Origin: an uncultured Christensenellaceae bacterium
GTDB taxonomy: Bacteria; Bacillota; Clostridia; Christensenellales; UBA3700
Reading direction: 5' to 3'
Assembly (NCBI GenBank): GCA_944381315.1
Contig: CALWKR010000031.1
Location: 410-64,409 of the forward strand
Length of the DNA stretch: 64,000 bases
Shown: piece after piece, positions 8,015-64,000 of the stretch
Numbering within the stretch: position 1 is the stretch's first letter
How the letters are laid out: each line of letters opens with the position of its first letter
Notes under the pieces: generated by a model
What the model was told of the DNA's origin: nothing
The model's database searches: none
What the model saw: the letters and a program-made list of their open reading frames with translations, nothing else
Made by a program: the position numbers and the translations under genes

Positions 8015-8042
8015 TATTTCAGTACCACATGAGGGAGATTTT

Positions 8043-10754
8043 ATGGCCAGTACATTCAAACGTAAGATCAACGAAGGCTTGACCCAGGTCAAAAATGCCG
8101 CCTCTTTCATCATCACGGACGTCACCTCGCACTGGAACAAACCGGGCAAGGGCAACTACGTCCCCTACAAAGAGGTGCTCAACTACTCCATCGGAGGCAT
8201 GGGACAGAACATGCTCATATATCTGCTCGGATATATGGCACTCGGCGTCACCAACACGCTGTTCGCGTCCACTATCGGCATCCGCCCGATGCACTTGCAG
8301 AATATGCTCACCGTGCAGACGATCCTCAACATCGTCTTCCAGATCATAAGAGGCAAGATCGTCGACAACACCAACACCCGATGGGGCAGATTCAGACCAT
8401 ATCTGGCGATCATGGGCGCTCCGCTCGCGATCATCAGCGTCATCTTCGTCTTCTTGCCGTTTGAGTCGATGTCTTACAGCGACAAGTACACGGCAGTCTT
8501 CGTGTTCGCGATCGCGATCTCGATCGGACAACCTCTCTATCAAACGGCTTATACCAACCTCGGCAGCGTCATCTCGCCGAGCACGGCGGAGCGCTCAAAG
8601 ATCCTCGCGATCAGCTCGCTGATCTATTCTTTCGCGCCGACGGTCTATCAGCTGTTCGTCCCGATCTTCTCCAACCTCACCGGCGGCTTCACCGATATCC
8701 GTACATACAAATATATCGTCGTGCCGATCGGCATCTTGGGCGTCTTCCTCAGTTTCTTCGCATTCTTCGGATGCAAAGAGCGCATCGTCTCGTCCAAACA
8801 CTTCGTCAAAAAAGTCAGCATAGTCGGCGGCTGCGTCGCTGTCTGGAGCAACAAATATTGGTGGTTGCGCACCATTTCCACTTGGTTCAGCTTCCTCGAA
8901 GGCGCCTATCTCGTGCTCTTTGGTTGGATCTATATCTACGGCACGCAAGATATGAACGCATACGGCATCTTGCAGACCATCCTCTCTATCGCGTCGGGAC
9001 TGTCGATGTTCGCAACGCCGTTCTTCTTGAAATGGCTGGGCAACAAAGGCATATTGCTGTTCCACAACATATTGAATATAGTCTTTATCGCGTGCATGCT
9101 CGCGTGCTATGAGATACCGCTGCTCTACTTCCTGTTCTTGTGGATCAACACGTTCATAAACCAATTGCAGCTTGTCTACAACCCCGTGCTCAACGCCGAA
9201 GTCAAAGACTCCATCCAGTGGCAGTCGGGCAAGCGCGTCGACTATATGCTCGAAGTCGCGGCTCTGATCGGCACGCCGGTCACCATTTTGTCCGGCTACT
9301 TCCTGCCGTTCATCTATGAGTCCTACGGCCTCACCGTCAACTACGACGTGCTCTATGATCCCAGCGTCCGCAACAGTTTGTTCTATATGCTGTGCGCGCT
9401 GTCCATCCTCGGCGCCGCGCTCAATCTCGCGCCTTACTTCCTCTACAATCTCTCGCGCGAGAAACACGCAATGATCGTGCTTGCGCTCAAATTCCGCGCA
9501 GCCAACACCGACTATCGCACCGGAGACCTCACTCCGCACCAAGTCAAGGACCTCGTCGAGAGCTACAACTATATGGTCAGCCGCAGAGACGCCGAAGTCC
9601 CCGACATAAAGGAAAAGAAGGAAGAGATGAAGGCAGCCAAGGCTGTCTACAAGACCGCAAGCAAAGAATACGAGCAATACTATGAGCTCCTCGAAAAGAA
9701 AACTCCCAAGGGGCAAGAGGTGGTCAAAACCGCAGAGCTCCTCGAGCTCGAAGAGATCTTCCATCAGCAAAAACAGGCCTACAAGGACGCTCGCGCCGCC
9801 TACAAAGACGCGTGCAAGCTCGTTCGTGACAAGGATGCGATCGAAGAATTCATCGCGCCCGAATTCGGCAAGTGGGACACTCCCAAGATGCAAGTCAAAC
9901 TCGCGCTCTCGCGTGCGATCACCGCTGTCGACAAGAACGACGTCGTCTCTACTCCGCTCGATCTGTCGCAGATCGTCGCGGTGCCCGATCTGACCCAATG
10001 GGCTGCCGAGCTCGCCGATCAAAAGCGCGCGAAAAAGCAAGCCGCGCTCGACAAGCGTCATCCCGGCAAAGAAGCTCCCGACATGACGGCGTGGGCGCAA
10101 AGAAAGGCGGCAAGAACAGAAAAGTCTTTGAGAGCTTTGATCAAACGCACGACGCTGCGTTACAAGATCATGCAGAGACTGTCCAAGCTCTTCTTCCCCA
10201 AGGGGCTGGAATACGACTATGAGGAGGCATACAAAAAGACCCTCGACGTCCAGTGCACTACCAAAGAAGAGAAAAAGGCGCAAAACAAGATCATCAAGGC
10301 GGCTCAGCGCAAGTACAACCGCTTCTCGACCGCCTACAAACTCTATATCGAGAGCGAGCAGGTCATCCTCGACTACAACGACCGCAACAACTTCTTCGAC
10401 TTCATCCTTCCGATGTATGACGAGTGCGCCGCCGAGGCGGATCGCATAGACCGCGAAGAAGAAGAAAAGGCTCGCGCCGAAAAGGCGGCGAAGGACGCGG
10501 AGATCGCCGAGATCAAGCTCGAGCGCCGCATCCGCAAAGACGCCAAGCAGTATGCAAAATCTCAAGGAGTCAAGTTCGACGACGAATTCCTCGCACGCTA
10601 CAAGAGCGAGAACGCTGAACTCTACACCGAGCCGACGACCGCAGCGGATGAAAATCCCGACGCGTTAAACGGCGCTGCAGTCGCGGACGACGTCAAGGAC
10701 GCCGAGACCGACAACCAAAACACCGACAAGGAGGGCTCCGACAATGAAAACTAA
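8043..10754 (+). CDS. GPH/MFS-family transporter fused to a ~430-aa Lys/Glu-rich cytoplasmic tail
   Basis: Start taken at ATG 8043 (SD GAGGGAG 8031-8037) inside the 922-aa ORF. GPH signature DNTNTRWGRFRPY. Hydrophobic core runs to about nt 9450. The rest is charged and coiled-coil-like (AYKDARAAYKDACK, EEEEKARAEKAAKDAEIAEIKLERR). Confidence 0.8.
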   Translation: MASTFKRKINEGLTQVKNAASFIITDVTSHWNKPGKGNYVPYKEVLNYSIGGMGQNMLIYLLGYMALGVTNTLFASTIGIRPMHLQNMLTVQTILNIVFQIIRGKIVDNTNTRWGRFRPYLAIMGAPLAIISVIFVFLPFESMSYSDKYTAVFVFAIAISIGQPLYQTAYTNLGSVISPSTAERSKILAISSLIYSFAPTVYQLFVPIFSNLTGGFTDIRTYKYIVVPIGILGVFLSFFAFFGCKERIVSSKHFVKKVSIVGGCVAVWSNKYWWLRTISTWFSFLEGAYLVLFGWIYIYGTQDMNAYGILQTILSIASGLSMFATPFFLKWLGNKGILLFHNILNIVFIACMLACYEIPLLYFLFLWINTFINQLQLVYNPVLNAEVKDSIQWQSGKRVDYMLEVAALIGTPVTILSGYFLPFIYESYGLTVNYDVLYDPSVRNSLFYMLCALSILGAALNLAPYFLYNLSREKHAMIVLALKFRAANTDYRTGDLTPHQVKDLVESYNYMVSRRDAEVPDIKEKKEEMKAAKAVYKTASKEYEQYYELLEKKTPKGQEVVKTAELLELEEIFHQQKQAYKDARAAYKDACKLVRDKDAIEEFIAPEFGKWDTPKMQVKLALSRAITAVDKNDVVSTPLDLSQIVAVPDLTQWAAELADQKRAKKQAALDKRHPGKEAPDMTAWAQRKAARTEKSLRALIKRTTLRYKIMQRLSKLFFPKGLEYDYEEAYKKTLDVQCTTKEEKKAQNKIIKAAQRKYNRFSTAYKLYIESEQVILDYNDRNNFFDFILPMYDECAAEADRIDREEEEKARAEKAAKDAEIAEIKLERRIRKDAKQYAKSQGVKFDDEFLARYKSENAELYTEPTTAADENPDALNGAAVADDVKDAETDNQNTDKEGSDNEN

Positions 10755-11740: not shown

Positions 11741-11776
11741 AGAGCTGTCACCGCTTGGTGACAGCTCTCTTTGTTT
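11741..11776 (+). terminator. Rho-independent terminator after the lipoprotein gene
   Basis: 12-bp perfect stem AGAGCTGTCACC / GGTGACAGCTCT, loop GCTT, followed by CTTTGTTT. Confidence 0.8.
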
Positions 11777-11779
11777 ACA

Positions 11780-12258
11780 CGTTAAATTTTCGAGCGTCCA
11801 AGGAGCCTCGCGGAAAAGGCTTATGAAAATAATTGAGCAAAACGAACAACGTAGCGCATATATGTCGCGCGAAACCGCGCTTCTCGCGCGACTCGATAAT
11901 GCGCTCGGCGGAAATGACACTTTTCGCCGAGCGCCCCTTGCGGAGCCGTGAGCGGTGAGCGAACGTGCTCCGTGGAAGGGGGTATTTGAGGGGGAAACCA
12001 AAATTAGCAAGTATGAGCAAAGGCGCGATCTGCGGATCACGCCTTTGCGATTCGCAGCGTTAAAATTTCGGTTGCCCAAGGATCCGCACAAAAGGGGCTT
12101 TGCATATGGTTGAGCTTATCGAATAAAGTTACGCATCGCGTCGCAGTCAACTGCGTTTGACCGCGACTGAATAATGCGCCGAGCCAAAATGCCTCCGTAT
12201 ATGAGCGGAGCGATTTAGGAGATAACATTTCGGTGTCCCTCAACTCGTAGCCTATTTG
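11780..12258. repeat. Two degenerate tandem copies of a ~278-bp non-coding unit
   Basis: Units start at 11780 and 12058 (CGTTAAATTTTCGAGCGTCCAAGGAG vs CGTTAAAATTTCGGTTGCCCAAGGAT). Further shared blocks include GCGACTCGATAATGCGC vs GCGACTGAATAATGCGC. Identity is only moderate by eye. Confidence 0.5.
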
Positions 12259-12603
12259 CACCGCCATTGCGGGAAGGGAGTGAGCAGAAAAAATTCCGAC
12301 AGCATTTTGCTGTCGGAAGCTTTCTGTGCACAGCAGTTTTGAGCTGCGTATTTTGCATGTTTCGCTATTCTTTTCCACTCCGTGGAGAGTGGTGCAGATT
12401 TGCGCCGTACAAAAGCGAGGACGCGGCCAAACGTATATGAAATACGTGACCGCATCTAAGACTTGCAGTAAGGCGCAAAGATGCGCCGCTATACGCGGCG
12501 TGGCGAAGGTCAATACCCGTAGAAGGTCTTAGCGAGGGGCAAGACGAAGTATTCGCGCAAAAGCCGCGCTCAAAACCTCACTCCCTCCCCGTCAATGGCG
12601 GTG
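12259..12603. repeat. Inverted-repeat-bounded ~345-bp element, copy 1 (MITE-like or structured RNA)
   Basis: Left arm CACCGCCATTGCGGGAAGGGAGTGAG (12259-12284) is complementary to right arm 12577-12603. The core of ~250 bp is about 95 percent identical to 17384-17636. Confidence 0.8.
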
Positions 12604-14785
12604 TCTTCAAAAAGGATTCCAGCATACTGTACCTCTTGGCAGTATAGTTGTTTTTGACCATCTTCTCGAGGTTCTCCTGCGAGCCGACGAGCACTGCCAT
12701 TTCGCGCGCGCGAGTGACTGCGGTGTAGAGCAAGTTGCGCGTGAGGATCATATAGTTGCCGCTCATCAGCGCGATGATGACGACGGGAAACTCCGAGCCT
12801 TGCGACTTGTGCACGCTGATCGCGTATGCGAGCGTGAGGTCCTCAAAGTCGCCTTGCATATATTTGACGCGCTTGCCGTCGTCGAACAGCACTTGCAGCG
12901 ACGGCTCGGACGGAGAGATCTTCTCTATCTTGCCGATGTCGCCGTTGAACACGCCCGTGCCCGTGCCGCCCTCGTCGTCGGTCCATTGCAGTTCATAGTT
13001 GTTGACCGTGTGCATCACCTTGTCGCCCTCGCGGAATGTGCGCAAGCCGACTTTGAGTTCCGTCTTTTGTTTTTGCGGCGGATTGAGCGCGTTCTGCAAG
13101 GTCAGGTTCATGTTTTCGACGCCGATCACTCCCTTCTTCATCGGACAGAGCACTTGGATCTCCATGGGATCGACGGCGGCATATGCCGGGATGCGGCGCG
13201 TGACCATGTCCGTCACCGTCGCCAAGATGTCGTCGGGATCGGTCTTGTTGTCAAAGAAGAAGTCTCGACTGCGATTGTTGATGACCGGCATCTTGCCGGC
13301 GTTTATGCGATGCGCGTTCTCGACGATCAAGCTGTCCTCGCTCTGGCGGTAGATCTGCGTCAAATAGCTGACGGGCACGATGCCGCTCGCGATCATGTCC
13401 GCAAGCACGTTGCCTGCGCCGACGGACGGGAGCTGGTCCTTGTCTCCGACCATGATCAGTCTGCCGCCGAATTTGATCGCCTTGATCAGAGCGTTGAACA
13501 CATAGTCGTCGCACATGCTGACTTCGTCGACGATGACGACGTCCTCTTCGAGCTTGGTCGACTCGTTGAACATAAACTTGCCCTTGCCGTCCGAAAAGTC
13601 GAGATCGAGCAATCTGTGGATCGTCTTTGCCTCGACGCCTGTCGTCTCGGTCAGCCTTTTCGCCGCCCTGCCCGTCGGCGCGCAAAGACAGACAGAATAG
13701 TTGCGGCTGCGCAGCAGATGTATGATGCACTTGACGATCGTCGTCTTGCCCGTGCCGGGGCCGCCCGTGATGATGTTCACGCCTTTGATCAGACAGCTGC
13801 GCACCGCCTGTGCCTGCGACTCGTGCAATGTGATGTGGTTGAGCTTTTCGTACAGCTCGATCTCCTCGTCCGCGTCGAGCGGAAGACTCGCCGCATTGTT
13901 GAGCATAGCCTTGACATAGGTGGCGATCGACTTCTCGCAGACGTAGTTGCGCGCGAGCATGTCGACATCCTCTTCGTCCTTGCGCAGTCTTACGATCTTG
14001 CCCGTGACTTCGCAATCCTCTATCATCTCGGAGATCAGCTCGACGGCGTCCTCTCTCTCCAATCTCAGCAATTTGTAGACTTCGTCGATCAGCTTGTTCT
14101 CGGGCAGATAGGTATCGCCGTTCTTGTTGGCGGCCTCTTTGAGCACATGGACGATCGCCGCGCCTATGCGGAATCGACTGTCGGGCTCTATACCTATCTT
14201 GGCGGCGATCTTGTCCGCGGTCAAAAAGCCCACGCCCTCGATGTCGTCGACAAGTTGGTACGGATTGTCGTGTACTATCTTGGCGGTGCTCTTTTCGTAC
14301 GCCTTAAAGATCTTGATCGCCAAGCCGAGAGACACGCCGTAGCTCTGCAAAAACACGATCGTGTCCTGCATCTCTTTGAGATTGAGCATGGACTCTTGGA
14401 TCGAGATCGCCTTTTTGAGCGACACGCCCTTGACTTGGGCGAGCTTGGCGGGATAGTGCTCGATCACGTCGAGAGCCTGCTCGCCGAACTTCTCGACGAT
14501 GGCGTAGGCGGTCACTTCGCCCACTCCCTTGAACAAGCCGCTCGACAGATATTTGAAGATAGCCTCTTTGGACGTAGGCGGAAGCACCTTGACGGACGTC
14601 ACCGCGAACTGCTCTCCGAATCGGCTGTTGCGCACCCAATTGCCTTCCATCTCCAACGTCTCGCCCTCTGTCAGCGGAGGGAATGTCCCCACGGCGGTAT
14701 AGGGCATCGAGTCCCCTTGCATATAGAGGACGCAATAGCCGTTTTCGGCGTTTCGGAAGATGACTTCAAGTACGGTGCCCTTCAC
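12578..14785 (-). CDS. recD2: RecD2-type SF1B ATP-dependent DNA helicase
   Basis: 735 aa with a GTG start. N-terminal OB/HhH region typical of RecD2 (VIFRNAENGYCVL). Walker A GGPGTGKTT and Walker B VIVDEVSM. Confidence 0.9.
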   Translation of the reverse strand: MKGTVLEVIFRNAENGYCVLYMQGDSMPYTAVGTFPPLTEGETLEMEGNWVRNSRFGEQFAVTSVKVLPPTSKEAIFKYLSSGLFKGVGEVTAYAIVEKFGEQALDVIEHYPAKLAQVKGVSLKKAISIQESMLNLKEMQDTIVFLQSYGVSLGLAIKIFKAYEKSTAKIVHDNPYQLVDDIEGVGFLTADKIAAKIGIEPDSRFRIGAAIVHVLKEAANKNGDTYLPENKLIDEVYKLLRLEREDAVELISEMIEDCEVTGKIVRLRKDEEDVDMLARNYVCEKSIATYVKAMLNNAASLPLDADEEIELYEKLNHITLHESQAQAVRSCLIKGVNIITGGPGTGKTTIVKCIIHLLRSRNYSVCLCAPTGRAAKRLTETTGVEAKTIHRLLDLDFSDGKGKFMFNESTKLEEDVVIVDEVSMCDDYVFNALIKAIKFGGRLIMVGDKDQLPSVGAGNVLADMIASGIVPVSYLTQIYRQSEDSLIVENAHRINAGKMPVINNRSRDFFFDNKTDPDDILATVTDMVTRRIPAYAAVDPMEIQVLCPMKKGVIGVENMNLTLQNALNPPQKQKTELKVGLRTFREGDKVMHTVNNYELQWTDDEGGTGTGVFNGDIGKIEKISPSEPSLQVLFDDGKRVKYMQGDFEDLTLAYAISVHKSQGSEFPVVIIALMSGNYMILTRNLLYTAVTRAREMAVLVGSQENLEKMVKNNYTAKRYSMLESFLKTPPLTGRE

Positions 14786-17102: not shown

Positions 17103-17136
17103 CGACTGCCGCAATTGCGGCGAGAAGACAAACAAT

Positions 17137-17167
17137 TTCCGACAGCGTCTTGCTGTCGGAATTTTTA
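17137..17167 (+). terminator. Rho-independent terminator after the oadB-like operon
   Basis: Stem TTCCGACAGC / GCTGTCGGAA, loop GTCTT, then T5. The same hairpin recurs at 12294, 17264 and 17392. Confidence 0.7.
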
Positions 17168-17391
17168 TGTGCAAAGCAGTTTTGAATCGATTTATAAATT
17201 GCATTAGACGGAGCAATGCTCACACTCTGCACCGCCATTGCGGGGAGGGAGTGAGCATAAAAATTCCGACGGCGTTTTGCTGTCGGAAGCTTTCTGTGCA
17301 AAGCAGTTTTGAATTGGTTAACTAATTTGCATTAGACGGAGCAATGCTCACACTCTGCACCGCCATTGCGGCGAGAGGGCAAGCAGAAAAA
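17137..17391. repeat. Two tandem 127-bp units
   Basis: Units start at 17137 and 17264, and a third starts at 17392 and continues into element copy 2. Each unit carries the TTCCGAC...GTCGGAA hairpin, GCATTAGACGGAGCAATGCTCACACTCTG, and a CACCGCCATTGCGG arm. Confidence 0.85.
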
Positions 17392-17701
17392 TTCCGACAG
17401 CTTTTTGCTGCCGGAAGCTTTCTGTGCAAAGCAGTTTTGAGCTGCGTATTTTGCATGTTTCGCTAGTCTTTACCACGCCGCGGAGAGTGGTGCAGATTTG
17501 CGCCGTACAAAAGCGAGGACGCGGCCAAGCGTATATGAAATACGTGACCGCGTCTAAGACTTGCAGTAAGGCGCTAAGATGCGCCGCTATACGCGGCGTG
17601 GCGAAGGTCAATACCCGTAGAAGGTCTTAGCGAGAGGTGCGACACAGTGTGAGGGCGAAAGACATAGCCAAAACCTTGCCCTCTCCCCGTCAATGGCGGT
17701 G
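17358..17701. repeat. Inverted-repeat-bounded ~345-bp element, copy 2
   Basis: Left arm CACCGCCATTGCGGCGAGAGGGCAAG (17358-17383) is complementary to right arm 17675-17701. The core matches copy 1. Confidence 0.8.
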
Positions 17702-17892: not shown

Positions 17893-19083
17893 TCACTCTT
17901 TGCCTTTTAGCTCGTTGACGAACTGCTCTATCCTGTCCATAGCCTTTTTGAGATCGGACAGCGAATAGGCATAGCTGATGCGAACGAAATCCTTGCCGCT
18001 CTCGCCGAACGCGCCTCCCGGGACGACGGCGACCTTCTTGCTCTCGATGAGCTTTTCGGCAAACTGCTCGCCGTCCATGCCCGTCGACGCGACGCACGGG
18101 AACACATAGAACGCCCCCTTGGGCTCAAAGCAAGTCAAGCCCATCTTGTTGAGTCTGTCCACCAAGAAACGGCGGCGCACATCGTACTCGTCGCGCATTT
18201 CTTCGACGGCGGCGAAGTTGTCCTCAAACGCAGATTTGAGCATTTGCAAGCCTGCGTATTGAGCGCTCGTCGGCGCGCACATGATTATGTATTGATGGAT
18301 CTTGAGCATTTGCTTTTCCACTTCGCGCGGAGCGCAGACAAAGCCAAGTCTCCAGCCCGTCATCGCGAACGCCTTGCTGAAACCATTGATGACGACGGTG
18401 CGCTCGCGCATCCCGTCGATCGAGGCTATGCTGACGTGGCGCTTGCCGCCGTAGGTGAGCTCGGCATAGATCTCGTCGGAGAGCACGAACAGATCGTGCT
18501 TTTTTACGATCTCGGCGATCGCGCGCAGCCTCTCTTCGGGCATGATCGCGCCGGTCGGGTTGTTGGGATAGGGCAAGATCAGCACCCTGGTCTTGGGCGT
18601 GATCGCGCTCTCCAACGCTTCGGGCGTGAGCTCGAACGAATTTTGCGCGCTGCAACGCGCGGCAACGGGGACGCCGCCGCACAGCTCTACGCTTGGGGCA
18701 TAGGACACATAGGACGGATCGGGAATGACGACTTCGTCTCCGTCCGAGACGAACGTGCGCAGCATCAGATAGATCGGCTCGCTGGCTCCGACGGTGACGA
18801 ACACTTCATCGTCGGGATCATATTGCAGCCCGAAGCGCACGGACATATAGCGTGAGATCTCCTCGCGGAGTTTGAGCAAGCCGCTGTTGGCGGTATAGTG
18901 CGTAAAGCCGCTTCGGATGCTGCGGATCGCCGCCTCGCGCGCCGTCCACGGCGTGTCAAAGTCGGGCTCGCCCACGCCGAGAGACACGACGTCCTTGTAG
19001 ATGGACGCGGCGTCGAAAAACTTCCTTATCCCCGACGGCTTGATGTGCTTGACCGTGTCGGTGAAATATTTTTCGTAATTCAT
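17893..19083 (-). CDS. Class I/II PLP-dependent aminotransferase (AlaT/AspC-like)
   Basis: 396 aa. PLP-lysine context NGFSKAFAMTGWRLG. ATGA overlap with the upstream Lrp-family gene. Confidence 0.9.
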   Translation of the reverse strand: MNYEKYFTDTVKHIKPSGIRKFFDAASIYKDVVSLGVGEPDFDTPWTAREAAIRSIRSGFTHYTANSGLLKLREEISRYMSVRFGLQYDPDDEVFVTVGASEPIYLMLRTFVSDGDEVVIPDPSYVSYAPSVELCGGVPVAARCSAQNSFELTPEALESAITPKTRVLILPYPNNPTGAIMPEERLRAIAEIVKKHDLFVLSDEIYAELTYGGKRHVSIASIDGMRERTVVINGFSKAFAMTGWRLGFVCAPREVEKQMLKIHQYIIMCAPTSAQYAGLQMLKSAFEDNFAAVEEMRDEYDVRRRFLVDRLNKMGLTCFEPKGAFYVFPCVASTGMDGEQFAEKLIESKKVAVVPGGAFGESGKDFVRISYAYSLSDLKKAMDRIEQFVNELKGKE

Positions 19084-19565
19084 ATGAGTTCTTCTCTCTT
19101 TTCTTCCGCTCTGTCCAAGATCACTCCCTCGTTCTTGTACTTCTTCAAGATGAAGTGCGTGGACGTGGAAGTGACGTCTTTGAGCACGGACAATTTTTCG
19201 GACACAAAGCGCGCGACTTCGCGCAGATTGCGTCCCTCGACGATCAGCGCAAGATCGTAGCTGCCGCTCATAAGATAGAGGTCTTTGACTTCTTCGTTCT
19301 TACAAATGCTGCGCGCGATCGAGTCAAAGCCGGCGCTCATCATCGGCGTGACTTTGACCTCTATCAGCGCGACGACTGCGTCCTCATCCGCCTTCTCGAT
19401 GTCGGTCAACACGGTGTAGCCGGAGATCACGCCGTCGTTCTCCATATCGGCGACGCGCTGCTCCACTTCCTTCTCGGTCATGCCTGCCGCCGCCGCGATC
19501 TGCGCCGCCGTGAAGCGGCTGTCCTGCTTCAAAATTTTGAGTATGGTCTCGTTTTTCTTGTCCAT
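19080..19565 (-). CDS. Lrp/AsnC-family transcriptional regulator
   Basis: 161 aa. N-terminal HTH (ILKILKQDSRFTAAQIAAAAGMTEKEV) and C-terminal RAM-like domain. SD GAGGAGGAA. Confidence 0.9.
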   Translation of the reverse strand: MDKKNETILKILKQDSRFTAAQIAAAAGMTEKEVEQRVADMENDGVISGYTVLTDIEKADEDAVVALIEVKVTPMMSAGFDSIARSICKNEEVKDLYLMSGSYDLALIVEGRNLREVARFVSEKLSVLKDVTSTSTHFILKKYKNEGVILDRAEEKREELI

Positions 19566-19574
19566 ATTTCCTCC

Positions 19575-21149
19575 TCAATCTGCCATCTCGAGGTATTCCT
19601 CATAAGTGGTCAGCTTGTCGAATGTCTTGGTGCCGTCGATCTCGATGATCCTGTTGGCGGTGGTCTGCATCAGCTCTTGGTCGTGCGACGAGAAGAGCAA
19701 GCAGCCCTTGTAGTTGATGAGCCCCTTGTTGAGCGCGGTGATCGCTTCGAGGTCGAGGTGGTTGGTCGGTTCGTCCATGATGAGAACGTTGCCTGCCGTC
19801 AGCATCGCGCGCGCGAGCATACAGCGCACCTTTTCGCCGCCGCTGAGCACTCCTGCGCTCTTCTTGACTTCGTCGCCCGAGAAGAGCATCCTGCCCAGCC
19901 AACTGCGAAGATACGTCTCGTCGTGGTCCTTGGACCAGCGATCTATCCACTGCACGAGGTTGAGTTTGCAGCCGTCGAAGAAAGAATCGAAGTTTTGGGG
20001 CAGATAGCCCGTCTTGACAGTCTTGCCCCAGACCACCTTGCCCGAATCGGGCTTTTCGACGCCTGCGAGAATGTCGAAGAGCATGGACACCTCGACGGAT
20101 CTCTCGCCGATGAACGCGATCTTTTCGCCCTTTTGGACGGTGAACGTCACGTCGTGGAAGAAGCCCTTCTTGGTCAAGCCCTCGACGGTCAGCACCTCTT
20201 TGCCGAGCTCTTGGTCAAACTCGAAATTGATGTACGGATACTTGCGCATAGACGGCTTGATGTCTTCGAGAGTGAGCTTTTCGAGCTCCTTCTTGCGCGA
20301 CGTCGCCTGGCGCGACTTGGAAGCGTTGGCGGCAAATCGCGCGATGAATTCTTGCAGCTCCTTGGCGCGCGCCTCAGCCTTCTTGTTGGCCTCTCTCGCC
20401 TGCTTTTGCAACAACTGGTTGGTCTCATACCAAAAGTCGTAGTTGCCGACATACATATTGATCTTGCCGTAATCGACGTCGCAGATGTGCGTGCACACCT
20501 TGTTGAGGAAGTGCCTGTTGTGCGACACGATGATCAGCGTATTCTTGAAATCGAGCAAGAACTTCTCGAGCCACATTACGCTCTTGGCGTCCAAATTGTT
20601 GGTCGGCTCGTCCAAGATCAGGATGTCGGGGTTGCCGAACAGCGCCTGAGCAAGCAAGATCTTGACCTTTTGCTTGGCGTCGAGCTCTCCCATCAGCTTG
20701 TCGTTATACTCCTCGCCGAATTTCAGCTCGTTGAGCAGTGACGCCGCCTCACTCTCCGCTTCCCAGCCGCCCAGCTCGGCGAATTCGTTCTCGAGTTCGC
20801 CTGCTCGCACGCCGTCCTCGTCCGAAAAATCGGGCTTGGCGTAGAGTGCGTCTTTCTCGTCCCATATCTGCATCAGACGCTTGTGCCCGAGCAAGACCGT
20901 GCGCATGACAGTGCAGTCGTCAAAGTCGTTTTGGTTTTGGTGCAAAACGCTGATGCGTTGTCCCTTGGTCACAGAGACGTGCCCTCTCGTCGGCTCGATC
21001 TCGCCCGAAAGGACTTTGAGGAATGTGGACTTGCCTGCGCCGTTGGCACCGATGATGCCGTAGCAGTTGCCCTCTGTGAATTTGAGGTTTACGTCCTCAA
21101 ACAGCTTTCTCCCGCCGAATTGAAGCGTAAGATCATTGACTTGGATCAT
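19575..21149 (-). CDS. ABC-F family ATPase (YbiT-like) with one degenerate ATP site
   Basis: 524 aa with two NBDs and no TMs. Walker A1 is GANGAGKST. The Walker A2 position reads GERSVEVSM. Signature 2 is LSGGEKVR. Both Walker B motifs are DEPTN. Confidence 0.9.
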   Translation of the reverse strand: MIQVNDLTLQFGGRKLFEDVNLKFTEGNCYGIIGANGAGKSTFLKVLSGEIEPTRGHVSVTKGQRISVLHQNQNDFDDCTVMRTVLLGHKRLMQIWDEKDALYAKPDFSDEDGVRAGELENEFAELGGWEAESEAASLLNELKFGEEYNDKLMGELDAKQKVKILLAQALFGNPDILILDEPTNNLDAKSVMWLEKFLLDFKNTLIIVSHNRHFLNKVCTHICDVDYGKINMYVGNYDFWYETNQLLQKQAREANKKAEARAKELQEFIARFAANASKSRQATSRKKELEKLTLEDIKPSMRKYPYINFEFDQELGKEVLTVEGLTKKGFFHDVTFTVQKGEKIAFIGERSVEVSMLFDILAGVEKPDSGKVVWGKTVKTGYLPQNFDSFFDGCKLNLVQWIDRWSKDHDETYLRSWLGRMLFSGDEVKKSAGVLSGGEKVRCMLARAMLTAGNVLIMDEPTNHLDLEAITALNKGLINYKGCLLFSSHDQELMQTTANRIIEIDGTKTFDKLTTYEEYLEMAD

Positions 21150-46814: not shown

Positions 46815-47117
46815 ATTCGTCTCCGAGAAAAAGGGCGATATGCTGTCTGCATATCGCCCGTAAAACAATCTCGTTATCCGACACGGATACCTCACAGAGT
46901 CTATATAGCAAATACACTTTTACTACTCTTATTGATTGTTTTACAAGCGGTCGTGCTCTCGCACCGGTTATTAAGTAACCAACTCATAAGATCGAGCGAA
47001 CTCGATCACAATAAGGCAACTTGCGTTGCGTTCGGCAGTGGACCCGGCTGTCCGTATGGCCTTACCCCTTTCGGGAGGTCCGAATATTTGCATGGATACT
47101 CTGATGATATCGCATGT
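46815..47117 (-). promoter_or_regulatory. ~300-nt structured 5' leader of the polyamine operon (unclassified cis-regulatory RNA candidate)
   Basis: Lies between promoter 47124-47152 and the ATG at 46814. Contains several tetraloop-capped hairpins (46953-46965 GAGA, 46990-47007 UUCG, 47016-47029 GCAA, 47065-47078 GAAA) and ends in an intrinsic terminator. Confidence 0.6.
46826..46859 (-). terminator. Intrinsic terminator (attenuator) inside the speD leader
   Basis: Minus strand reads GGGCGATATGC-AGACA-GCATATCGCCC followed by TTTTT. The T-run ends 12 nt before the speD ATG. Confidence 0.75.
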
Positions 47118-63714: not shown

Positions 63715-63794
63715 ATCGTCAACGAGTATTGACACTTTTGCGTCGTTTAACCTCGGCCGCGTTACAGCCCCGTGCAACGGCCGCATGGTTGAAA

Positions 63795-64000
63795 AATTCT
63801 AAGCACAACAAAAAGTATGTCACAGAAACTTGACAGCAGTGGTCGCGGCCGTGTGACGACAGCATATTTGGAATAATTCTAAGCGGAGCAAAAAAGTTGT
63901 CGCTGATACTTGACGACACGAAGCGGCAGAGTTGAGATAATTCTAAGAGGCACAAAAAGTGCGTCATAGATGCTTGACAGCTGTGGTCGCGGCCGTGTGA
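63795..64000. repeat. Three tandem ~40-nt modules AATTCTAAG-N25-CTTGAC, truncated by the window edge
   Basis: AATTCTAAG occurs at 63795, 63875 and 63939. CTTGAC lies exactly 34 nt downstream in each case. The 17-mer TGGTCGCGGCCGTGTGA is repeated after modules 1 and 3. Confidence 0.8.

Follow-up and report, generated by a model that had tools for sequence, protein, structure and literature searches.

Structure-conserved interspersed repeats of modular build in a Christensenellaceae genome and its relatives

The analysis of two neighbouring units of about 345 bp in the genome of an uncultured Christensenellaceae bacterium points to a family of mobile repeats rather than to a single element. The reading that we favour, with a probability of about 0.7, is that the flagged unit consists of two nested small interspersed palindromic repeats, and that the outer one, here called E, is a non-autonomous foldback-type mobile element of the MITE/REPIN/BOX kind. 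The inner one, B, is a second palindromic repeat. Best supported is the view of E as a new family of modular, structure-conserved interspersed repeats of a familiar bacterial kind. The evidence comes from the fold of E and the changes that preserve it, from its distribution over related genomes, from its gain and loss at individual sites and from its placement at the ends of genes.

The window, i.e. the whole stretch of 64,000 nt that was analysed, belongs to a draft assembly (G000) from the Ca. Ornithoclostridium group, of 1.48 Mb in 79 contigs and about 91% complete. The original prediction placed two copies of one element in it, and their coordinates (Table 1) were confirmed from the sequence. 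Each copy is indeed closed by inverted arms (CACCGCCATTG-CGG... / ...CCGTCAATGGCGGTG), with one bulged base in the 3′ arm. The two copies are 92% identical in an alignment of their whole length, and their cores differ at ~12 of ~254 columns, counted by eye. Differences between the arms of the two copies are confined to one 10-nt block, which reads AGGGAGTGAG/CTCACTCCCT in copy 1 and AGAGGGCAAG/CTTGCCCTCT in copy 2. All four are compensated in the partner arm, as had been claimed, an outcome with estimated chance odds of roughly 1e-4 or less. The block had been described as the outer 10 nt of the arms; it is the inner part, adjoining the core, and the outermost 14 nt are the same in both copies. 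Arms match within every full-length copy of this genome (the two window copies and those on contigs C7, C27 and C59), and a third arm subtype is represented by a left arm (C63) and right arms (C12, C24) that match each other, which makes three arm subtypes altogether.

Both window copies fold far beyond shuffled controls on both strands (z about -12). Copy 1 matches the covariance model of the family, R1, over model positions 1-220 with 100.7 bits and a single large insertion, while the match of copy 2 is limited to its 5′ part. Neither copy had a match in Rfam 15 at the gathering score or at E≤10, and ARAGORN found no tRNA or tmRNA. The statement that no transposase lies nearby is true of the flanking ORFs, which encode RecD2, LuxS, OadB, an aminotransferase, an ABC-F protein and products without a Pfam hit.

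Table 1. Positions of E, B and associated features in the window (numbered from its first nucleotide; a dot stands where no strand is assigned).
Feature	Coordinates	Strand	Basis or remark
Cluster of other interspersed repeat modules adjoining copy 1	11780..12258	.	Matches >20 other contigs; on average ~8-21 other copies per base
Copy 1: E element, arm subtype AGGGAGTGAG, with nested B	12259..12603	+	Sequence; model match
Copy 1, P1 5′ arm (closing stem)	12259..12284	+	
Copy 1, P2 hairpin	12294..12318	.	Terminator-like on both strands, better U-tract on minus strand
Copy 1, GCAGTTTTGAGCTGCG	12333..12348	+	Junction and start of P3; most conserved E motif; recurrent breakpoint in truncated copies
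Nested B in copy 1: 134-nt imperfect palindrome	12372..12505	.	Comparison with the B-less C12 copy
Copy 1, P1 3′ arm	12577..12603	+	Minus strand gives the last 8 codons and stop of recD2
recD2 helicase gene, 3′ end enters copy 1	12578..14785	-	Pfam AAA_30, HHH_RecD2, SH3_13, UvrD_C_2
Array unit 1: degenerate 5′ arm, P2, GCAGTTTTGA, then leader module	17103..17229	+	
Array unit 2: 5′ arm (copy-1 subtype), P2, GCAGTTTTGA, then leader module; no 3′ half	17230..17357	+	
Copy 2: chimeric E element, arm subtype AGAGGGCAAG, with nested B	17358..17701	+	
Nested B in copy 2	17470..17603	.	

The 345-bp unit had been taken for one element. It is E carrying a nested B, and copy 2 is in addition a chimera of subtypes. 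A BLAST search of copy 2 against its own genome returned 58 matches to pieces of it, many of them at contig ends, and three modules occur independently of one another: A (the 5′ arm and a hairpin), B (the 134-nt palindrome) and C (the 3′ part and the 3′ arm). Units of A and C without B measure ~215 nt (C7:1056-1272, C59, C27), arrays of A only also exist in this genome, and B is found alone on C20, C30 and C47 and as three tandem copies on C7. These tandem copies (C7:480-915; ~122-135 nt each, with a AAAAAGAAG linker) directly follow the CCA-proximal end of a tRNA gene.

Set against the B-less subtype-1 copy on C12, the window copies have B and an 18-nt linker in place of ~20 nt of the E core (GCGAAGACAAGTCGCGTCCC), which form the 5′ strand of P4/P5. 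In copy 1 the fold energy of B is -77 kcal/mol. What had been noted as the shared core of the two copies is largely the inserted B. Copy 2 combines a P3 5′ strand of subtype 1 (GTTTTGAGCTGCG) with a P3 3′ strand (...ATAGCCAAAAC) of the third subtype, which is also present on C37, C63 and C70. The window copies are old, damaged members of E. B has taken over part of the E core, and a later swap between copies would have exchanged either the B-bearing core or the arms, or homogenised the core; exchange of this kind would explain why two internally matched arm subtypes surround a near-identical core. In the complete genome of a related species (G010), two arm pairs ~467 nt apart (C1:73597-74064 and 1258951-1259417) delimit E copies of about twice the normal length, which presumably carry an inserted module, like the window copies.

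E itself is ~215 nt long. Its consensus fold, derived from 18 aligned full copies, is branched around a three-way junction and comprises 66 modelled pairs in 7 helices. The closing stem P1 (~26 bp) has conserved termini, (G/C/T)ACC...GGT(C/G/A), a conserved bulge and an inner part that is free in sequence and co-varies. P2 is a long side hairpin flanked by A and T runs that resembles a bidirectional intrinsic terminator; a match to the terminator consensus (GC-rich hairpin and T run) flagged it on both strands in copy 1 and again at 17137-17161, 17264-17288 and 17392-17416. A conserved junction, GGTGCnnnGCAGTTTT, follows P2 and leads to a long bulged helix, P3/P4 (ATTTTGCGC.../...GCGCAAAAG), and to an apical domain, P5-P7, with the conserved unpaired stretches GCAGGTCAATACC and TCTTAGCAAGG. 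The interior of E holds no conserved ORF.

This fold is maintained via compensatory changes. The covariation proposed from the arms of the two window copies turned out to extend far beyond the arms: when 42 distinct copies are fitted to R1, 50 of the 66 pairs have changed on both sides and 95% of cells are paired. A MAFFT/RNAalifold alignment made independently of R1 has compensatory changes at 42 of the 66 pairs. None of 500 shuffles reached the observed pairing and covariation, and partners slid out of register were ~40% paired.

E is multi-copy and lineage-restricted. Matches to R1 are present in all 15 species of the genus, which are gut Christensenellales: 22 in G000, 35 in G002, 30 in G008 and 42 in G010, with weaker matches of 168-225 nt, often lacking P2, in the other 11. 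In three other species of the genus, related copies were found at about 70-76% identity. The arms of a distant clade are conserved in sequence (TACCAGNCCAGAATAATACGAAC; 83 arms in G013, 56 in G005 and 13 in G011) and bound elements of 146-296 nt, whereas the arms of the window's clade are free to vary over their inner two thirds, where they nevertheless remain complementary. Outside the genus, R1 matches were found in 4 of 200 other genomes of the order. These represent three other families, each genome holds several copies, and all four share the same core motifs, including the unpaired loops. A scan of about 185,000 species for the core pattern matched only three records, all from the Ca. 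Ornithoclostridium group: OZ006985.1 (uncultured Christensenellaceae, 1,815,257 bp; this is G010), Ca. Ornithoclostridium faecigallinarum and an uncultured Christensenellaceae MAG. No E match was found in plasmids. Carriage by phages was considered and rejected: the one viral contig with a pattern match had it inside an ORF, without a match to the model, i.e. a chance hit.

The presence or absence of E at given sites and the near-identical copies at unrelated loci indicate that it behaves as mobile DNA. Copies are gained and lost at orthologous sites: the 3′ end of recD2 carries E in G000, G008, G002 and G010, where the last codons of the gene are replaced, and lacks it in G003, a member of the same clade with the native end ...FLRAEKR*, and in 8 of 9 distant species. 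There have also been recent bursts of near-identical copies. Four such copies in G011 (~277-279 nt, as judged from arm positions) occupy unrelated unique loci, and two copies in G010 differ at 2 of 221 nt, their identity ending exactly at the ends of P1 and giving way to unlike flanks. At one G011 locus (L101, on G011:C19), the left flank ~100 nt upstream of E (GGTGCGACCCGGAGCAGCGGGTGCTAACCGCGGCGAGGC...) resembles a structured leader, possibly a riboswitch.

The MITE-like reading put forward in the original prediction is largely borne out. Multiple copies, presence and absence at sites, near-identical copies at unrelated loci and the lack of a nearby transposase all agree with it; it is weakened by the lack of both a target-site duplication and an autonomous partner. 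No direct repeat was seen at the boundaries of the four G011 copies, the two G010 copies or 36 full copies. A TA target duplication of the IS630/mariner-like type was considered for the distant clade, whose elements end in TACC...GGTA, and was discarded: the homologous positions read GA...TC or CA...TG in other clades, so the TA...TA belongs to the inverted repeat. In the complete G010 genome every true arm pair is at most ~700 bp apart, and arm searches in G000, G005, G011 and G013 likewise met no autonomous partner; these are draft assemblies that break at repeats, and absence there is not absolute. The lone arms met in these searches were at contig ends or had degenerate partners.

A mobiliser of the RAYT/IS200 type was rejected because its domain is missing from the copy-rich genomes: Y1_Tnp (Pfam PF01797) occurs only in G008 and G006 among the 15 genomes of the genus, and the Pfam screen found none in G000, G002, G010, G005, G011 or G013. 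E would spread by a structure-dependent route that leaves no target duplication, with an enzyme acting in trans. The form under selection would be the single-stranded fold, as DNA during mobilisation and/or as RNA when co-transcribed.

Copies of E adjoin the 3′ ends of genes, often supplying the stop codon, and their orientation tracks the direction of replication. In 25 of 36 distinct full copies, an opposite-strand ORF of at least 100 codons stops at or inside the 3′ arm, and in nine of these the stop codon T|GA spans the junction; the mirror test on the 5′ side gave only 3-4 of the 36. Sister species share several of these sites as orthologues, which reduces the number of independent gene-end events to roughly 15. 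For all 15 full copies in the complete G010 genome, the orientation agrees with the sign of the GC skew, the element strand being the negative-skew strand, and 13 of 16 copies in the window's own genome obey the same rule. After insertion, E would serve as, or be tolerated as, the terminator and 3′-UTR structure of the abutting gene. The U-tracts that follow P2 and P1 suit termination of that gene, which lies on the opposite strand.

Another, unlikely explanation is that the copies are multi-copy structured ncRNA genes or cis-acting RNA modules whose fold and internal loop bind a protein or have another function. Covariation is very strong in every helix, and the unpaired motifs are kept across the genus and three other families of the order. 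Selfish repeats do not usually conserve unpaired loops to this degree, and a functional RNA would fit as well. Wobble cells in the modelled pairs are asymmetric on the element strand (80 G-U/U-G against 32 A-C/C-A), contrary to the expected mutational bias, since cytosine deamination on the skew-positive strand should give the opposite. In addition, the RNA fold is more stable on the element strand, i.e. that of the model, in 31 of 35 copies. The wobble bias and the fold energies together suggest that selection acts on the element-strand fold, which is antisense to the abutting gene, and this preference fits poorly with a simple terminator role for the upstream gene. Other observations speak against RNA genes. 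Neither prediction nor inspection by eye revealed a recognisable sigma-70 promoter on the element strand of the conserved leader that precedes the 5′ arm, and that strand has no U-tract after the 3′ arm. On the gene-sense strand, inspection by eye shows a TGnTACAAT-like box and an AAGGAG in some G010-clade leaders, inconsistently across copies and with no regular start codon. Truncated, chimeric and B-interrupted copies occur freely, some orthologous sites have no copy, and copy number ranges from ~1 to ~40 between sister species.

Truncated copies always keep the 5′ end; they are arranged in tandem, with one complete copy downstream of them, next to the gene. In the window, two tandem 5′ fragments of E (17103-17357) precede copy 2. 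Breakpoints were determined by direct reading of the arrays, and the commonest, GCAGTT(TT)G(A), recurs in G000 and G010 in at least 9 of ~15 units by our own count. No motif of the family is more strongly conserved than this one, which lies ~10 nt past P2. The 5′ arms of the G010 clade follow a conserved leader (CTCCTTGCCTGCC...GAACCAAGCCCAAAAATA), which on the gene-sense strand provides a T run (TTTTT) directly after P1.

Four arrays in G010 (L105:440-1300, 8030-8850 and 18880-19760; L109:3960-4900), at about 1.13-1.15 and 1.358 Mb of OZ006985.1, are made up of 3-5 E fragments with the 5′ end preserved. Every fragment follows a ~38-nt leader and has a different arm subtype, and each array closes with one complete copy abutting a stop codon. 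Thirteen model matches in this genome are clustered in 1.11-1.26 Mb. The leaders of the window array (17185-17229 and 17313-17357; TTGCATTAGACGGAGCAATGCTC...) appear to be the reverse complement of the G010 leader and of a second form in G000 (TTATTGCTCCGCTTATGCCG...). The leader module contains a CAATG/CATTG hairpin and seems to have undergone inversion.

E could instead be a folded single-strand site for recombination or nicking by a recombinase or nuclease, comparable to integron attC sites or to the hairpin-plus-nick substrates of HUH enzymes, with the arrays arising from successive site-specific events. Several properties agree with this: stem structure is kept while sequence varies, the termini and the bulge are conserved, no target is duplicated, orientation relative to replication is strict, truncated copies keep the 5′ end with the same break recurring in two species, and the complete copy always sits at the end of a gene. 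We nevertheless regard it as quite improbable, as the array units have no cassettes or ORFs between them, the Y1 HUH transposase is missing from the richest genomes with no candidate enzyme found in its place, and the better-paired strand is the leading-strand template. In IS608-type elements the active strand is the lagging-strand template, the opposite of what is seen for E. What leaves some weight to this explanation and to that of RNA genes is that the loops are conserved, the orientation is strict and the breakpoint recurs. Finally, the case that the original prediction had itself named as fatal, in which nothing more than a local segmental duplication gave rise to the two window copies and gene conversion made their arms differ, can be dismissed as extremely improbable: the copies lie 5 kb apart and share the B insertion junction and a ~95% identical core, but dozens of copies exist on other contigs and in other species, and both arm subtypes recur elsewhere in the genome with matched partners.

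We tentatively raise a more specific scenario, which we hold to be possible rather than probable. E could be acted on by a mobilisation or recombination system of a kind not yet described, one that reads the folded single strand, not the sequence of the arms, cuts or joins at GCAGTTTTG and inserts copies at gene ends in a fixed orientation relative to replication. Such a system would recognise the conserved termini, the bulged closing stem, P2 and the invariant GCAGTTTTG ~10 nt past P2. It would leave no target duplication, and each tandem array of 5′ fragments would record a series of events at a single site.

E and B are not the only repeats in this region. The cluster of modules adjoining copy 1 (Table 1) fills the entire spacer between the terminator of a lipoprotein gene (11741-11768) and copy 1; its matches are often at contig ends and often adjoin copies of E or B, and a 60-nt module within it (12181-12240) recurs with about 90% identity at 12 or more other sites. 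Units spaced by 144 bp (AATTCTAAG...CTTGACAGC.GTGGTCGCGGCCGTGTGA) at 63770-64000, which run past the end of the window, have at least 5 other copies in the genome and form a family distinct from E and B. Short repeats with at least 3-5 other copies make up about 1.3-1.7% of the assembly. Elsewhere in the window, positions 47032-47081 on the minus strand match Rfam RF02440 (ldcC / SpF59 RNA) with 66.3 bits, which exceeds the gathering score.

Small interspersed repeats influence where transcripts end, interrupt assemblies and serve as lineage markers, and for most families no mobilising enzyme is, to our knowledge, known. E repeats account for many of the contig breaks in these Christensenellales MAGs, change the C-terminal ends of genes such as recD2, and could be taken for new RNA genes by mistake. 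The branched fold with its conserved loops, the strict orientation, the siting at stop codons and the breakpoints at its most conserved motif make this family unusually informative, and together they render a structure-dependent mechanism without target duplication testable.

How E relates to described systems can be judged feature by feature. With MITEs it shares a length below ~500 bp, the lack of coding capacity, a high copy number (22-42 model matches per genome in four species) and terminal inverted repeats of 26-27 nt; a target-site duplication and, in the genomes examined, an autonomous parent with the same ends were not found. The Correia/NEMIS repeats of Neisseria, which duplicate a TA target and are conserved in sequence, are likewise small, non-coding and abundant, have terminal inverted repeats of ~26 bp, lie beside genes and can affect transcript ends. 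Unlike them, E has in the window's clade inner arms that are variable but complementary, and neither a target duplication nor a parent insertion sequence was found for it. The likeness to integron attC sites may be one of analogy: structure would be conserved over sequence in both, with conserved termini, an extrahelical base, strand-specific folding and an orientation relative to replication. Sites of the attC type are about half the size of E, and they are associated with gene cassettes, whereas no cassettes or ORFs lie between the units of E arrays.

The pneumococcal SPRITE is an interspersed element that resembles a Rho-independent terminator (PMC3049150). E, too, is interspersed and has an oversized stem followed by a U-rich tract (P1 and then TTTTT, on the gene-sense strand in the G010 clade), but it is much larger and branched, and the terminator-like P2 is just one of its domains. 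REPINs, or REP-BIMEs, are mobilised by RAYT tyrosine transposases (Bertels & Rainey 2011, PMC3116915). In behaviour E comes nearest to REPINs: both are hairpin-forming extragenic repeats that occur in clusters, in tandem arrays and in mosaics with other short modules, that can fold as single-stranded DNA or mRNA, and that show no classical target duplication. E differs in being a branched fold of ~215 nt instead of an inverted doublet of 20-40-nt REPs, and a RAYT/IS200 gene (Y1_Tnp) is absent from 13 of the 15 genomes of the genus, including the three richest screened.

In architecture, E comes nearest to the BOX elements of Streptococcus pneumoniae, which are built as boxA-boxB(n)-boxC and for which target duplications have been reported (Croucher et al. 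2011, PMC3049150). E belongs to another host phylum, has no target duplication, and adds a three-way junction and conserved loops; B is a repeat family of its own that entered E at the cost of some E sequence, and not a regular module. The analogy, which concerns architecture only, is nonetheless a close one: both are modular, with end modules that pair and a self-folding middle module that is absent or in tandem copies, and here we find A and C without B, B alone or three in tandem, and A-B-C composites. Both are lineage-restricted, and extensive structure is predicted for both when they are co-transcribed. For a repeat of this kind, the fold of E is unusually elaborate and well conserved.
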